Source: a virus
Taxonomy: Duplodnaviria > Caudoviricetes
IMG/VR virus record: IMGVR_UViG_3300021387_001758
Span: 1-64,000 of that record
DNA: 64,000 nucleotides
Strand: one strand, 5' to 3'
Positions 22,915-29,457 of the stretch are shown one piece after another. Position 1 is the stretch's first letter, and each line of letters starts with the position of its first letter. The notes below the pieces were generated by a model. That model was not told the DNA's origin. It ran no database searches and saw only the letters and a list, made by a program, of their open reading frames with translations. The translations under genes and the position numbers were made by a program.

Positions 22915-23470
22915 AAATAAAAAACATTAAAAAAGGTATTGACATTTAGGGCGGGCGGGTGTATACTATAATTGTTCCAAGGGAGGGACAAACGAAAATA
23001 AAAAAAATAAAAAAAGTTTGAAAAATCCCTTGACAAATCAAAGCCAATGTGCTAATATATACTTGAGGGTAGGAGAGTTAAGGGTTTACCTCACTACAAA
23101 GTAGCAAGCAGTCGCAAGTACAAGCACTACCGAAAAAACCCGAAAAAAGTTTAAAAAAAGTGTTGACAAACTAAAGCAAATGTGCTAATATATAATCAAG
23201 GAAAGGGAGATACTTCTGAGACTGTTCCCCAATACCGAAAGGCAAGAGAACTGTGAGCCAAATAAAATTTGTAGCCGCATAGGAAGTATCACCCGAAATC
23301 CTAAAAAAATCTAAAAAAGGTATTGACAAACTTGAAAAAGTATGTTAATATATAAATGTCAAGAGGGTCGTGGAGAGGTCGCCCCACGAAGTAGCGTAAG
23401 AGGATAACACACAGACCTAAATCGATAAGTGAAAACCTCTTGACAATATTACAAAAGTGTGATAATATAT
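22915..23470 (+). promoter_or_regulatory. Stack of five tandem sigmaA promoters with ORF-less intervals
   Basis: TTGACA near 22940, 23031, 23164, 23323, 23440, each with a -10-like hexamer. Confidence 0.75.
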
Positions 23471-23546
23471 AATCACAGAGAGGGAGACAGGAACTCCCAA
23501 AGGTAACTAAAAAGGGTCACGACCAACGTGAGAAAGTAGGTACACT

Positions 23547-23888
23547 ATGACTAACAGAGAATTCTTCGAAATGGTAATGAATGGTAACGTAACTGACGAG
23601 GTTAAGGCTCACGCTGAAATGTCGATTGAGAAACTCGATGCGCGCAACGCAAAGAGAGCATCTCAGCCGTCAAAGAGAGCGATTGAGAACGAACCTATCA
23701 AGGCTAACATCAGAGAGTATCTCGCTGATAAAGAGCCGACTACGGCAAGCGAAATTGCCAAGGGACTTGAACTGACTGTTCAGAAAGTTTCCGCACTGTG
23801 TAGACAGATGGTAAATGATGGTATTCTCACCGTTACCGAGGTTAAGGTAAAGGGAAAGGGCAATCAGAAAGCGTATGCTATCGGTTGA
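23547..23888 (+). CDS. Winged-HTH (MarR/ArsR-like) protein, paralog 1
   Basis: TTASEIAKGLELTVQKVSALCRQMVNDGIL. Confidence 0.75.
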   Translation: MTNREFFEMVMNGNVTDEVKAHAEMSIEKLDARNAKRASQPSKRAIENEPIKANIREYLADKEPTTASEIAKGLELTVQKVSALCRQMVNDGILTVTEVKVKGKGNQKAYAIG

Positions 23889-24181
23889 CAATAATTCCCA
23901 GCCGGGAAGAGAGAGAAAATCTCTCTCTTCCTTTTTTTACCATTCCGCGGTTAACAATAACAGGTATTATGTCAACCGCGACAATAATAATATTATTGTC
24001 AACCGGCCAAAAATCTTTATCCACAGATTGTTAAATTTTTAACAGGGCGGCCGGCCGCGCGCACTTTAGCGAGTTAAAGCGTTAAAGGATCGAGCCAAAA
24101 AAATAATTGGAAAAAAGTACTTGACAAGTCCTCTTCATTATGGTAATATATACTTGTAAGAAGGAGAAAGGAGAAATAAAA

Positions 24182-24373
24182 ATGACTTGTACTGAATGGA
24201 ATAAAGGGATTAAGTTCCTCACTACTGCAGAGGTAGGCGCGTGGGTTGACCACGAAGACCGCACAGTTATTATCGAGGAGATGTGCGGAGGCAGATATTT
24301 ACTCCTCGACCGCAAAGAAGTTTGCGGGGTGACCGATTCGGTCATCGAGGCGATGTCATTCCTTAGGGGATAG
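24182..24373 (+). CDS. Hypothetical protein
   Basis: 63 aa; start by RBS. Confidence 0.6.
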   Translation: MTCTEWNKGIKFLTTAEVGAWVDHEDRTVIIEEMCGGRYLLLDRKEVCGVTDSVIEAMSFLRG

Positions 24374-24527
24374 GCAACCGCCTTTTTTATTAACCAATGA
24401 ACGAACGTTCGCGCGGCCGGCCGCGCGCACTTTAGTCTGCTAAAGCATTAAAGGATCGAAAAAAAGTACTTGACAAATCCTCTTCATTATGGTAATATAT
24501 GGGTAGAAAGAGAAAAGGAGATAAAAA

Positions 24528-24701
24528 ATGAAAGTGATTTTTGCAGGGTATCTTATTGTAGTCTTTTCCCTTGGCGTTCATGGGATTTTTTATGATAAAA
24601 CCGATAAAAACGGAAATTTTAAAGTAAATTGGCCTTTTGGTTTATTTCTTTTCTTGTTTGGACTTACTCCCATAATTGCGAAAATATGTAATTTAATTTG
24701 A
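24528..24701 (+). CDS. Small two-TM membrane protein (57 aa)
   Basis: Hand-translated MKVIFAGYLIVVFSLGVHGIF...WPFGLFLFLFGLTPII. Confidence 0.55.
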   Translation: MKVIFAGYLIVVFSLGVHGIFYDKTDKNGNFKVNWPFGLFLFLFGLTPIIAKICNLI

Positions 24702-24770
24702 AATTGCACTTGACAAGTCCTCTTCATTGTGATATACTTATTATAGAAAGAAAGGAAAGGAGAAAGGAAA

Positions 24771-24938
24771 ATGAAAACGTACTTATTTGAAGATTTTGAA
24801 ACGGGTGAGAGATTCTTTGTTGAAGAGGAAACACCGGAAAAGGCAATTGCAGTTGCCGATGAATATTTTGACCACGCTATTTTCATGTGGGAAGTATCCG
24901 AAGAATGGGCGGACTTGGCAGGATTTGACACTTACTAA
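24771..24938 (+). CDS. Small acidic protein (55 aa)
   Basis: Hand-translated MKTYLFEDFETGERFFVEEE...; promoter and RBS. Confidence 0.6.
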   Translation: MKTYLFEDFETGERFFVEEETPEKAIAVADEYFDHAIFMWEVSEEWADLAGFDTY

Positions 24939-25042
24939 AAAAAATTAAAAAAGTTTTGAAAAAGGGTTGACAAGTTCAACCCTTTATGGTAATATATAAT
25001 CGTAAGGAAGAGAGAGTTAAAAAAAAGAGAAAGGAAAAAGAA

Positions 25043-25234
25043 ATGATGTACTTAGTAATTTTTATCGAAGAATACGTTGGCTACCACTTTGACGAACACA
25101 CCAAGTTTTTCAAGGATGAACAGTCGGCAAAGGAATATTGCCAGAAATTAAACGCCGAATTTGCCGAAGAAAATCATTGTTCGGTTGAAGATTTAGGTGA
25201 CTACTACACGGTTGAGTGGGTTAAGGAAGGTTAG
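25043..25234 (+). CDS. Small acidic protein
   Basis: Start by RBS; terminator at ~25250-25276. Confidence 0.6.
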   Translation: MMYLVIFIEEYVGYHFDEHTKFFKDEQSAKEYCQKLNAEFAEENHCSVEDLGDYYTVEWVKEG

Positions 25235-25586
25235 AAAGGACTAACCCACCAAAAAGAGGGCAACCTCTTTTTTTTTGTTCTGCCGGCGAACATACGTTCT
25301 CGGCGGCCGCCCTCGCGCACTTTAGCGTAGTAAAGTGGTAAAGTGGACGGATCCGGCGCCCGCGCATAAACATACATGAAAATGTATAAATATTTTTTTC
25401 AAAAAAGTATTGACAAAATTGATTATATATATTATACTATAATGGGGAAGTATGCCCAGGCGTAAAAGTGCGAATTTTCTGAATTGTCAGAAAATTAAAA
25501 CTTTTTATTTTGGGGTTGACAAATTCCGTTCTATCCCTTATAATAGTAACTGTAAGGTAAAGAGAAAAGGAAAGGAACGAAACAAC

Positions 25587-26252
25587 ATGAAAATCGACAA
25601 AAGAAAAAACTATTATCTGACAATCGACACGGAAACGGCAAACGGATTTGATGACCCGATTGTATACGATTTAGGCGGATGTATACATGACAAGAAAGGC
25701 AACGTAATGGAAACATTTTCCTTTATCATTTACGAAACCTTTTGCGGAATGAAAGATTTAATGCAGAGTGCCTACTACTCCGAAAAAATTCCGATGTATC
25801 AGAAAGAAATTGACGAGGGAAAAAGAAAAATCGTAACCTATACCACCGCCAAAAGATATATCAATGCACTTTGTAAAAAGTACAATGTCAAGGCAATAAT
25901 CGCCCACAATATGAGATTTGATTATAGGGCAACGACACGGACGCAAAGATATATCACGAAATCAAAAGTCAGATTTTTTCTTCCGTATGGCGTTGAATTG
26001 TGGGATACAATGAAAATGGCAAATGATACAATTTGCAAACAGAAAACATATATCAAGTGGTGTAAAGAAAACGGATATATGACAAAGAACGGACAAGTCA
26101 GAAAAACGGCGGAAATCCTTTACAAGTACATTTCAGGCAACTGGGATTTTGTGGAAAATCATACAGGACTTGAAGATGTGCTAATCGAAAAGGAAATCTT
26201 TTCCAAGTGTATGGCACAACATAAGCCGATGAGAAAATTATGTTTTGACTAA
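25587..26252 (+). CDS. DEDDh 3'-5' exonuclease, paralog 2
   Basis: IDTETANG, AHNMRFD, HTGLEDV. Confidence 0.85.
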   Translation: MKIDKRKNYYLTIDTETANGFDDPIVYDLGGCIHDKKGNVMETFSFIIYETFCGMKDLMQSAYYSEKIPMYQKEIDEGKRKIVTYTTAKRYINALCKKYNVKAIIAHNMRFDYRATTRTQRYITKSKVRFFLPYGVELWDTMKMANDTICKQKTYIKWCKENGYMTKNGQVRKTAEILYKYISGNWDFVENHTGLEDVLIEKEIFSKCMAQHKPMRKLCFD

Positions 26253-26335
26253 AAAAATTCTAAAAAAGGGGTTGACAAAGTCAGCCCCTTTTGGTATTAT
26301 AATTATAGAAAGAGAGAGAAAGAAAGGTAAGAAAA

Positions 26336-26488
26336 ATGTATATGGTATGGGTATTTGATGAAGATTTATATGATGATGTGTTGATTTTTGAAGGGTCATA
26401 TGAACAGTGCCAAGAGGTAGTAGCCGAAGGGCGCGCAATCGGTGAGGACCCGTATATCGTAGCCAGCGAGGACTACTACGAGGACTAA
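26336..26488 (+). CDS. Small acidic protein (50 aa)
   Basis: Hand-translated MYMVWVFDEDLYDD...; terminator at ~26499-26527. Confidence 0.55.
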   Translation: MYMVWVFDEDLYDDVLIFEGSYEQCQEVVAEGRAIGEDPYIVASEDYYED

Positions 26489-27029
26489 GCCGAAAAGGAT
26501 AAGCCGAAAGGCTTATCTTTTTTTTTGTTCTTAAAAAGAACATATGTTCGCGGCGGGCCGGTGGCGCGCACTTTAGTCTGCTAAAGCGTTAAAGCGATCC
26601 GCGCCGCTTGTTAAAAATTTAACAATCGATCCGGTCCGCCGATTGTTAAAAAATTAACAAAGATTTTTTTCAAAAAGGGGTTGACTTTTTCCCTATGTGG
26701 GTATATACTATAATTGTCAAGGGGAGAGGAAGCCGAGGGACTCACGAGGGCGCGCACTCCACGAGAGAAGGAAAAAAATTCTCGAAAAAAAATAAAAAAA
26801 CCCCTTGACACTATCACAAAAATGTGATAATATATAATTGACCCAAGGGGAGAGGTTAAAAACGAAAGTAGTAAAATATTACAACCCCGCGGGTGAAAAA
26901 AAGTTTTAAAAAGTACTTGACAAGATAGACAAAAGGTGCTATACTTAAGTCAAGGAAAGGGGAAAGACAGGAACTTTCCCAAAGGTAAATCTAAAAAGGG
27001 TTGTGACCAACACAAGAAAGAGGTGTCTT

Positions 27030-27374
27030 ATGACAAAGAGAGAATTCATGGAAATGGTTATCGCTGAGGTTACTAACGCAGAACTCAAGGCTTTTGCCCA
27101 GTCTGAAATCGAAAAGATGGACGCGCGCAACGCTAAGAGAGCCGAAACGCCTTCCAAGACGGCAATCGCTAACGAGCCTATCAAGGCACAGATTGTCGAA
27201 TTCCTGAAGGGTTGCGAGGAAAAGGTTACCGCTTCCGCTATCGCTTCCGAGGTTGAAATCTCAACGCAGAAGGCTTCCGCCCTTTGCAGACAGTTGGTAG
27301 CAGATGGTGTTCTGACCGTCGCAGATGTGAAGGTTAAGGGCAAGGGTACACAGAAGGGTTACGAAATCGCGTAG
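27030..27374 (+). CDS. Winged-HTH protein, paralog 2
   Basis: VTASAIASEVEISTQKASALCRQLVADGVL. Confidence 0.75.
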   Translation: MTKREFMEMVIAEVTNAELKAFAQSEIEKMDARNAKRAETPSKTAIANEPIKAQIVEFLKGCEEKVTASAIASEVEISTQKASALCRQLVADGVLTVADVKVKGKGTQKGYEIA

Positions 27375-27747
27375 CCTAACCCAAGCCGAGGAAGGGAAAA
27401 ATTTTCCCTTCCTTTTTTTACCATTCAGACGAACATATGTTCGTGGCAGAAATTGGAAGAACATATGTTCGCGAACATACGTTCGCGGTCGATCTGGTCC
27501 GGACTTTGTTAAAAATTTAACAATCGGGGCCGGCGCCGCGCACTTTAACACACTAAAGTGCTAAAGTCTTTCGATCCGGCGCGCGGTTTACATAATATTA
27601 TTATCGTTATGCGGTGCGGTTTACATAATATTATTATCGTTACGAAAAAATCCGAAAAAAATTTTTGAAAAAGGGTTGACAAATTGTGTTCTATCCCTTA
27701 TACTATATATAGAAAGTAAGAGTTGAGGTTAAGGAAAGGAGTTAACT

Positions 27748-28107
27748 ATGGCAGTATCGCGCAAGGTAGAAAGAGAAATCATCCGCAAACAGTATCTCGA
27801 AATGGTAGCCGAATTCCTCAAGGAAAAGGGTGAAGATGTTCTCCGTGTTAAGTCCAACGAAATCGCTTTTCCAGTCGTTGGATGTGAAGATAGCGAAGAT
27901 TTTCTCGTTATCACTTTCAAGGTGCCGACTGGCGCCAATAAGGGAATGGAACCGTATGACGGTTACGAAATGGCGGAAGAGTACGAAATGAAACTCAAAG
28001 CCAAAGAGGAAAAGGCGAAAGCCAACGCCGAAAAAAAGGCGAAGAAAATCGCTCGCGACAAAGAAATCAGAGCGAAAAAGGCAGAAATTGCCAACAAGGG
28101 AAAATAG
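27748..28107 (+). CDS. MAVSRKVERE family paralog 2
   Basis: Shares LRVKSNEIAFPVVGCxDSEDF and KVPTGANKG with 22066..22422. Confidence 0.75.
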   Translation: MAVSRKVEREIIRKQYLEMVAEFLKEKGEDVLRVKSNEIAFPVVGCEDSEDFLVITFKVPTGANKGMEPYDGYEMAEEYEMKLKAKEEKAKANAEKKAKKIARDKEIRAKKAEIANKGK

Positions 28108-28619
28108 CCATTTTCTTCCAGAGGGAAGAGGGTCGGTTGACCCTCTTCTTTTATTGTAAACCGCGCAACAATAATAATATTATGTCAACCACGAACATAT
28201 GTTCGCGGCAGCCGAATTTCAAAGGCGAACATATGTTCGCGGCCGGCCGTAGTTGTCCACTTTAACACACTAAAGCGATAAAGTGCGCGCCGGCGGGCGT
28301 CCACTTTAACACGTTAAAGTAGTGAAGTGCAGAAATCCGGGCCGCTCGTTAAATTTTTAACAAAGTCAAGTTTTCTGGCAACTATTCCGAAAATTAGTTT
28401 TTTAGGAATAGTTACAACCTCTTCACTATATATAGTATATTTCCCTCTTCAATACCACTATATATAGTATGTTTTGGTCGTGCCAACTATTCCGAAAAAA
28501 TGCTTTATCGGCATAGTTATACCGCCGAATTGTCAGAATATTCCAACTATTCAGAATTGTCAGAATATTCCAGCTTTTCGCTTTAGCGTACTAAAGCGTT
28601 AAAGCGTTGTCAAATTTTA

Positions 28620-28860
28620 AAATTTTTCCAGGAGCTGCGAAAGAGCTGCGATCGAAAATTTTTTTCACGGCCGTGGGGAGCTGCGATTTGACTTTTTTAT
28701 TTCGCATCCAGGAGCTGCAAAAAATTTGACTTTAAAAGTCAAATTTCTTTTATAAAATTCAAGGAGCTGCGCTTTGGAAATTTGACAAAAAAAGTCAAAT
28801 TTTTAAGGAGCTGCAACTTAGAGCTTTTGGGAATTTGACTTTAAAAGTCAAATTTTCAGC
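28620..28860. repeat. Cluster of GGAGCTGC direct repeats and TTTGAC-N7-GTCAAA palindromes
   Basis: GGAGCTGC at 28631, 28677, 28711, 28763, 28807; palindromes at 28722, 28778, 28832 (and ~29580). Confidence 0.8.
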
Positions 28861-29115
28861 GCGCACCCGCACGAACCTCTTCAAATTAAAATTTGAAAAA
28901 GCTCTAAAAATCTTTTATAATATATATAGAAAGTGAGGGAAGAAAAAAATAAAAAGCTCCTCCGCTGAAGAGGAAAGGGCAAAAGAAATTTTGACAAATC
29001 CTCAAAAATCTTATATAATATATATGTAAGATGAAGAGAGGGAAAAGTAACTTCCTTCTAAAGTAAAAACCATAACGTAACTGGGTGGTGACCTACACCA
29101 GAAAGAGAGTACAAA

Positions 29116-29457
29116 ATGACTAAGAGAGAAATGATGAACCTGATCGCTAACGGAACTATCAATGAAGAGGTTATGGCTTGGGCTGTCGGCCAGATCGAGA
29201 AGATGGATGCGGCTAACGAGAAGCGCAGAAACTCCGTTTCTAAGAAAGCGCTTGAGAACGCTCCGATCATCGACAGAATCGTGAACGAGATCCTCGGTGA
29301 GGAACCGATGACTGCTACTGATGTAGCTGGAGTTCTCGGAGTTTCTGTCCAGAAAGCATCTGCACTCCTGCGCACTGCCGTGAAGGAAGGTAGAGCTGCT
29401 GCCGAGGACGTGAAAGTTAAGGGCAAAGGCACTCAGAAGGGGTACACTCTCGCGTAG
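29116..29457 (+). CDS. Winged-HTH protein, paralog 3
   Basis: MTATDVAGVLGVSVQKASALLRTAVKEGRA. Confidence 0.75.
   Translation: MTKREMMNLIANGTINEEVMAWAVGQIEKMDAANEKRRNSVSKKALENAPIIDRIVNEILGEEPMTATDVAGVLGVSVQKASALLRTAVKEGRAAAEDVKVKGKGTQKGYTLA

Follow-up and report, generated by a model that had tools for sequence, protein, structure and literature searches.

In phages T4 and T2, gene 32 is under autogenous translational control through a covarying H-type pseudoknot, located in its 5' leader far upstream of the Shine-Dalgarno (SD) sequence, and this pseudoknot nucleates the cooperative binding of the single-stranded DNA-binding protein (SSB) over an unstructured tract. The preQ1-I riboswitch (RF00522) is a very small H-type pseudoknot by the ribosome-binding site, with marginal stability alone. 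Moreover, the helix-turn-helix (HTH) proteins Aca1 and Aca2 bind covarying hairpins in their own 5' untranslated regions (UTRs) (PMC13551039), and the winged-helix ROQ domain of Roquin binds RNA stem-loops (PMC4614863). Here we analyze the leaders of three paralogous winged helix-turn-helix (wHTH) genes in a virus of the Caudoviricetes, IMG/VR record IMGVR_UViG_3300021387_001758. The window studied, 64,000 nucleotides long, is the first 64 kb of this 78-kb record, which is approximately 66% complete. Each of the three leaders consists of a 5'-proximal hairpin (hairpin A) and a second hairpin, the core element, and comparison of many homologous sequences indicates that this second hairpin is a real, selected RNA structure.

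The core element follows the consensus GGG-U-NNN-G-ACC(A/U)A-C-NNN-A and ends at the SD word GAAAG (Table 1); its invariant letters are the GGG before the stem and the ACC at the start of the loop. A first-pass annotation of this DNA had proposed a structured leader common to the three genes, and the stems, loops and coordinates that it gave for the three copies proved exact, with GGG before the stem, GAAAG after it and 10-15 nt to the ATG. GAAAG, listed there along with stem and loop, is the SD sequence itself, outside the fold. For the full pattern, 0.17 occurrences would be expected in the window and three are present, a count that none of 100 shuffles reached, and a covariance model run over the 78-kb record returned only three strong matches, the three paralog leaders (45-48 bits). 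By folding energy the core hairpins are marginal (-3 to -5 kcal/mol, z approximately 0) and no better than shuffles; therefore, the case for structure rests on covariation, and this is strong.

Covariation was followed in two independent sets of sequences. IMG/VR was scanned with the pattern GGGT-NNN-GACCWAC-NNN-AGAAAG, in which three stem positions per side are left free, and 29 of the 40 matches were complementary at all three free pairs; four further variants with a 6-nt loop were found. In the cleanest control, comprising 185,579 bacterial and archaeal genomes, complementarity was seen in 9 of 114 matches, about the 5% expected by chance, and the few true instances among the bacterial genomes look like binned phage contigs. 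When the 29 distinct viral sequences are aligned, every cell is paired (100%): one pair appears as UA, GC, AU, CG and GU, while the two others switch GC/AU and CG/UA, and no shuffle or slid register of the alignment comes close. The second set consisted of 80 metagenome loci retrieved through protein similarity alone, 33 of which have the element, with 98% pairing and three covarying pairs. All 33 elements lie no more than 60 nt 5' of the gene and on the gene's strand, and none was found elsewhere in the flanks. The compensatory changes first noticed among the three paralogs hence extend far beyond them, and all the DNA fetched yields approximately 99 distinct instances with more than 12 different stems. 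Regarding the genes concerned, 24 of the 29 structured viral matches precede the wHTH family, including members at hidden Markov model (HMM) E-values of 1e-9 to 1e-20. Altogether, the proposal of an RNA structure stands: the element is on the sense strand between the predicted transcription start and the SD sequence, covaries, and is tied mainly to the wHTH family. A comparison with Rfam, which the first-pass annotation had suggested, was also made, and the element has no match in Rfam 15. No hit overlapped the elements in a scan of the 9-kb region, and when the three leaders were searched alone with the E-value limit raised to 10, nothing above noise emerged (6-12 bits, where the gathering scores are 38-109).

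A compensatory inverted repeat alone cannot tell an RNA helix from a palindromic operator, as homologous promoters hold covarying repeats in non-transcribed DNA. Those repeats, together with the flagging of the copy 1 repeat as terminator-like on the minus strand, are what speaks for a DNA-level feature, be it the palindromic operator of a dimeric regulator or a terminator of the antisense strand. Nevertheless, such a reading is already largely refuted, and we consider it scarcely credible. Across the instances, G-U wobbles in the stem outnumber A-C/C-A mismatches by 30 to 11 (about 3 to 1), which favors a sense RNA, and two stem positions vary by transitions only. The loop varies between 5 and 9 nt in length, at odds with a dimer operator; moreover, loop and 5' flank are asymmetric and invariant, and every stem repeat is single-copy in the 78-kb record. 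The recognition helices of paralogs 1 and 2 are nearly identical, yet their stems differ. A DNA operator was rejected on the single-copy repeats, the variable loops and the excess of G-U over A-C, and an antisense terminator because it is flagged for copy 1 only, copy 3 has no U-run on the minus strand, and the invariant GGG would be left unexplained.

More can be said about the fold itself. We call leaders with the window-type element class A and homologous leaders with a pseudoknot class B. Nine class B leaders fit one H-type pseudoknot template, in the same position as the window element and with the order S1a, one G, S2a, one nucleotide, S1b, an L3 of 4-5 nt, S2b and AGAAAG. Both stems are fully paired in all nine, and both vary, stem 1 occurring as UGC/GCA, UGU/ACA, CGC/GCG, GGU/ACC, GGC/GCC and GGG/CCC. 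The window copies fit the same template as GG-G-UNNNG-A-CC-WA-CNNNA, and the protein tree does not separate class A leaders from pseudoknot leaders, which occur together in the clade of copy 3 as well. On these two grounds, we infer that the window hairpin is probably stem 2 of a minimal H-type pseudoknot, in which GG/CC would form a 2-bp stem 1 and one G would be loop 1. The window stem 1 is put forward conditionally, since no class A leader departs from GG/CC and a stem of only 2 bp has little strength. A pseudoknot would explain the frozen GGG and ACC, the unremarkable helix energy and the variable 3' part of the loop. The first-pass annotation had suggested that the ACC loop could pair with a GGU downstream in two copies, and this pairing is not conserved: GGT is present in only 34 of the 99 instances, 3' of the element in copies 1 (23539-41) and 2 (27022-24) and not in copy 3. 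The invariant partner of the ACC loop is more likely the 5' GG, giving the pseudoknot. Kissing between the loops of hairpin A and of the second hairpin was considered and discarded, as by eye they are complementary over 2-3 nt, inconsistently between leader types, and show no covariation.

Other arrangements were seen among the homologous leaders. In L021, L035, L046, L154 and L119, element and SD sequence are separated by an additional small hairpin, whose loop is often of the GAAA type (GCC-GAAA-GGC, GUC-GAAA-GAC). In addition, further leader classes occupy the same position (L041, L056, L049, L052, L057, L068, L070, L074, L133); the L041-type classes resemble hairpins whose loop pairs with the 3 nt right before the SD sequence, past an A-rich linker, with an apparent compensatory change between L041 (ACG/CGU) and L056 (UCG/CGA).

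A small pseudoknot in this position could also be a minimal riboswitch, that is, a ligand-stabilized H-type pseudoknot of the preQ1-I size class, and ligand sensing had been raised in the first-pass annotation. As in preQ1-I, the window element is very small, a putative H-type pseudoknot near the ribosome-binding site and marginally stable, a stability that a ligand could raise; an invariant junction with covarying stems, portability between unrelated genes and the occurrence of several structural classes before one gene family are also what a riboswitch would display. However, the three leaders match no Rfam riboswitch even at E up to 10, and the RF00522 model itself has no match in the 9-kb region or in the three leaders. 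The core is only approximately 18 nt long, the SD sequence is in neither stem and is not sequestered, and the downstream GGU pairing is not conserved. Moreover, unlike in preQ1-I, the SD sequence is not within stem 2, loop 3 has 2-5 nt rather than a long A-rich tail, and there is no link to queuosine genes; more generally, a wHTH gene offers no metabolic logic. Sensing of a ligand is thus very unlikely.

We then considered what the position of the element implies. The stem is flush with GAAAG in 56 of the 99 instances, and where an extra hairpin is inserted it is the end of this extra hairpin that is flush with AGAAAG. The position of the element is fixed relative to the SD sequence and not to the promoter, which suggests a role in initiating translation or in protecting the ribosome-binding site. 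We tentatively favor, with confidence somewhat short of even, the reading that the element is a protein-operated translational operator beside the SD sequence, in which control would most likely be autogenous. Each wHTH mRNA would start at its own strong sigma-70-type promoter and bear the two-part structured leader; a protein would recognize the fold together with the invariant GG-G...A-CC nucleotides and, as this fold lies against the SD sequence, would block or trap the 30S subunit when bound, limiting the synthesis of wHTH protein. The likeliest partner would be the wHTH family itself, acting on its own mRNA and those of its paralogs. The need for a partner is suggested by a contrast: by itself the helix contributes only -3 to -5 kcal/mol, whereas GGG and ACC do not change between leaders of proteins of 40% identity or less. 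In addition, within the record only the three paralogs carry the element, among dozens of similarly promoted early genes. The link of 24 of the 29 structured viral matches to the family, the old divergence of the paralogs and the precedents of Aca1, Aca2 and the ROQ winged helix also speak for an operator.

Several findings weigh against this reading. The module also precedes genes outside the family (L087, L111, L116, L118, L101:5401 and L310), and it is present in a 47.6-kb phage, rated complete by CheckV, from which the family is absent. In the latter (L087, equivalent to G002, at approximately 32.2 kb on the minus strand), there is one perfect copy, in which a promoter is followed by GGG-TTACG-ACCAA-CGTAA and GAAAGTAG, before an unrelated 118-aa gene. 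When all open reading frames (ORFs) of the record were compared with the two complete phages that bear the motif and lack the family, no shared protein was found at E < 1e-4; the second of these phages, L084 (55% GC, no promoter), may be a chance match. Moreover, the near-identical proteins L192 and L195 have different leaders, one of class A and one unstructured with a double SD sequence, which indicates that leader modules have been swapped by recombination, and 40 of 138 homologs (about a third) have short unstructured leaders. The folds that the protein matches belong to generic winged helices that bind DNA. Furthermore, as stems differ despite nearly identical recognition helices, recognition would have to be of the loop and junction and not of the stem sequence, and the GG/CC of stem 1, invariant in class A, is physically weak at 2 bp and has no covariation of its own. 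An autoregulatory role, which the first-pass annotation had listed as a candidate, remains plausible, but it is weakened by the unrelated phage without the family, the swapped leaders and the unstructured leaders of a third of the homologs.

The same findings bring forward a serious rival, in which the element is an intrinsic translation or stability module without a dedicated regulator: a portable cassette for initiation and stability made up of a fold abutting the SD sequence and a 5' hairpin. It may stack on the SD-antiSD helix, keep the SD sequence unpaired, or stop 5'-to-3' or 5'-end-dependent decay (RNase J/Y type) before the ribosome-binding site. Presence before unrelated genes, and in a complete phage sharing no protein with the record, is what would be expected of such a cassette, as are the swapping of leaders among near-identical proteins and a helix end directly at AGAAAG in class A, class B and extra-hairpin leaders; the fold itself would account for the GG/CC invariance, with no partner needed. 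Nevertheless, dozens of neighboring early genes whose promoters and SD sequences are of this type do without the module, as does a third of the homologs, and the helix is too weak to block a nuclease well unless a tertiary fold stabilizes it strongly. On balance, we regard an intrinsic module as rather unlikely.

That the module is portable among unrelated phages and yet selective within a genome, along with its invariant loop and junction nucleotides, would also suit an operator on which some factor distinct from the wHTH protein acts. One candidate is a host RNA-binding protein, e.g., CsrA on the loop of hairpin A; another is a phage repressor of the type of T4 RegA, which shuts down the translation of selected early mRNAs. 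In copies 1 and 2, hairpin A presents GGA within its ACAGGAA loop, which we take to resemble a CsrA site; GGA is absent from the corresponding loop of copy 3 (AAGUAAC) and of many homologs, and in none of the three window copies does a GGA overlap the SD sequence. A common phage factor is in turn unlikely because the record and the unrelated 47.6-kb phage share no protein. Overall, we consider such a factor improbable.

We also weighed a signal that acts during transcription, as lambda nut boxB or HK022 put do, in which the hairpins just past the strong early promoter would put a factor onto RNA polymerase or alter the enzyme, leading to readthrough of the terminators behind the wHTH genes. 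The window element and the boxB of lambda nutL both have a stem of 5 bp and a loop of 5 nt, and both are placed in an early regulator's leader (N in lambda), past a strong early promoter, and strong terminators do follow copies 1 (23904-23932) and 2 (27388-27414). However, the window loop is ACCAA or ACCTA and not a GNRA-like pentaloop, boxA-like words, which were located over the whole record, are missing from the three leaders, the genes past the terminators have their own promoters, and the element is anchored to the SD sequence and not to the promoter. Such a signal is therefore highly improbable.

The genes, promoters and leader features are listed in Table 1. All three wHTH genes have a near-consensus sigma-70-type promoter, and the predicted leaders are approximately 72, 78 and 90 nt long; the promoter stands 5' of the element in every copy, and no space is left for a further one. 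In several homologs, the core element begins 8-12 nt past the -10 box. The upstream hairpin with an ACAGGAA loop, described earlier for two copies, was confirmed in copies 1 and 2, and an equivalent hairpin with an AAGUAAC loop was found in copy 3. Its stems covary over homologous leaders (GGGAG/CUCCC, GAGAUAG/CUAUCUC, GAGAGAG/CUCUCUC), and hairpin A most likely shields the 5' end of the mRNA. A leader peptide was discarded, as no start codon preceded by an SD sequence was found within the leaders.

Table 1. Position of the features associated with the three wHTH genes in the window.
Feature	Position	Strand	Details
Promoter, copy 1	23440-23468	+	TTGACA-17-TAATAT, TG extension; predicted start ~23475, 5' of both hairpins
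Hairpin A, copy 1	23482-23498	+	GGGAG / loop ACAGGAA / CTCCC; -7.7 kcal/mol, z -2.2
Core element, copy 1	23514-23531	+	GGG, stem TCACG (23517-21), loop ACCAA, stem CGTGA (23527-31); 45.9 bits
SD region and ATG, copy 1	23532-23549	+	GAAAGTAGGT; begins immediately 3' of the stem
wHTH paralog 1	23547-23888	+	113 aa; ATG at 23547
Intrinsic terminator after paralog 1	23904-23932		Strong; 12-13 bp stems in the two terminators, then T-run
Promoter, copy 2	26917-26945	+	TTGACA-17-TATACT, TG extension; predicted start ~26952
Hairpin A, copy 2	26960-26980	+	GGGAAAG / loop ACAGGAA / CTTTCCC; -9.4 kcal/mol, z -2.1
Core element, copy 2	26998-27015	+	GGG, TTGTG, loop ACCAA, CACAA (stem-loop 27001-27015); 47.9 bits
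wHTH paralog 2	27030-27374	+	114 aa; 61% identity to paralog 1; ATG at 27030
Intrinsic terminator after paralog 2	27388-27414		Strong; 12-13 bp stems in the two terminators, then T-run
Promoter, copy 3	28991-29019	+	TTGACA-17-TATAAT, 12/12; predicted start ~29026
Hairpin A, copy 3	29037-29059	+	AGAGGGAA / loop AAGTAAC / TTCCTTCT; one G-U pair; -8.9 kcal/mol
Core element, copy 3	29083-29100	+	GGG, TGGTG, loop ACCTA, CACCA (stem-loop 29086-29100); 45.4 bits
wHTH paralog 3	29116-29457	+	113 aa; 46% identity to paralog 1; ATG at 29116

The proteins themselves are correctly labeled wHTH, since an AlphaFold2 (AF2) model shows a winged helix and its Foldseek matches are winged-helix domains (ArsR, MarR, PadR, TFE and Z-alpha). 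The model (pLDDT 88) has three N-terminal helices and then the winged helix, with helices H43-59, H67-74 and H78-90 and strands E94-101 and E105-112, that is, the three-helix bundle and beta-hairpin wing that define the fold. Pfam gave MarR/HTH matches to the paralogs, all sub-threshold, and a sequence search of the PDB gave winged-helix matches that were only weak. Against phage GenBank records, no nucleotide match and a single, weak protein match were obtained, and in public data the family comprises more than 800 clusters, none with a functional name. The three paralogs fall in three different subclades of the protein tree, from which it follows that the element has been retained since an old duplication. 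As terminators stand directly 3' of paralogs 1 and 2, these two are monocistronic units.

Some additional features of the promoter regions were recorded. An inverted repeat, TGTGAT-N8-ATCACA (23458-23477), flanks the -10 box of the copy 1 promoter, and the reversed order, ATCACA-AAAA-TGTGAT (26813-26828), is found in the spacer of an ORF-less promoter at 26805; ATCACA occurs only four times in the 78-kb record. This repeat has no sequence resemblance to the RNA stems and may be a DNA operator. Covarying repeats around the -10 box, as in copy 1, were also seen in L071-L072, L174, L178, L180, L193 and L053 (e.g., GTGC...GCAC, AGTCTG...GGACTT and TATGC...GCATA). Another type of covarying inverted repeat begins with the CA of TTGACA and ends with the TG of the extended -10 box in L006, L007, L009, L011, L027, L033, L048 and others, as CAGATT/AATCTG, CACAG/CTGTG, CAGAC/GTCTG and CAAAC/GTTTG; it is a palindrome at the DNA level, is non-transcribed, and is not present in the three window promoters. 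Moreover, strong promoter-like sites followed by 60-90 nt without an ORF precede each paralog (23323-23440, 26681-26800, 26805-26915 and 28893-28990), and the first of these stretches contains a degenerate copy of the element (GGG-TCGTGG-10-nt loop-CCACGA-AGTAG, 23365-23394). The predicted folds of the ORF-less stretches are unexceptional; they could be orphan leaders, tandem promoters or small RNAs.

Regardless of how it works, the element is an uncatalogued, widespread RNA motif of rumen and human-gut phages, with approximately 100 distinct instances, attached to a protein family without an assigned function, and it merits an Rfam-style family whether it is an operator or an intrinsic module. 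At its fullest, the interpretation would be that of a new minimal H-type pseudoknot class (core of approximately 18 nt), flush with the SD-antiSD helix and read by a phage winged-helix family that binds RNA besides or instead of DNA; taken as a whole, we hold this to be doubtful. If it were true, the three paralogs would regulate one another in a post-transcriptional network, the operators would belong to several pseudoknot classes that can replace each other, and the Aca-type principle of an HTH protein binding its own 5' UTR would extend to the winged helices of large Firmicute phages. Were an intrinsic module the right explanation, it would provide a compact and portable expression cassette for Firmicutes. 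The leaders are also a cheap test case for the generality of RNA binding by HTH regulators, so far shown for Aca1 and Aca2, and they raise a second question, namely the effect on initiation of an extremely small pseudoknot flush against the SD helix.

Finally, the locus can be set against the systems described at the outset. With Aca1 and Aca2 (PMC13551039), it shares a phage HTH regulator gene and a short covarying hairpin between transcription start and start codon; translational repression by the gene's own product, proposed or shown there, is only proposed here. A covarying hairpin in the mRNA of a regulator, between its transcription start and start codon, which characterizes the Aca case, is what the window leaders have. 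In contrast, the window genes are monocistronic, with a terminator (copies 1 and 2), and have no acr partner; their product is a winged helix, a putative RNA binder only; and conservation of sequence falls on the loop and 5' flank rather than on the stem. Furthermore, no DNA repeat matching the stems lies in the promoters, each stem repeat being single-copy in the 78-kb record. Roquin ROQ (PMC4614863) shows that a winged-helix fold can read the shape and loop of a short RNA hairpin, but it acts in eukaryotic mRNA decay and is unrelated in sequence to the wHTH family.

Like the gene 32 operator, the window element would be a small, covarying H-type pseudoknot that serves autogenous translational control and is placed in the leader of an early phage gene for a nucleic-acid-binding protein, stem 1 being conjectural in the window, where it is an invariant GG/CC, whereas the nine class B leaders vary in both stems. 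It differs in that the window fold abuts the SD sequence and the product is a wHTH protein and not an SSB. Overall, the element falls outside the Aca RNA motifs, the gene 32 operator, the nut sites and preQ1-I; it constitutes a new RNA family, although its general kind is known, and among known systems it would work most like the Aca motifs and the gene 32 operator.

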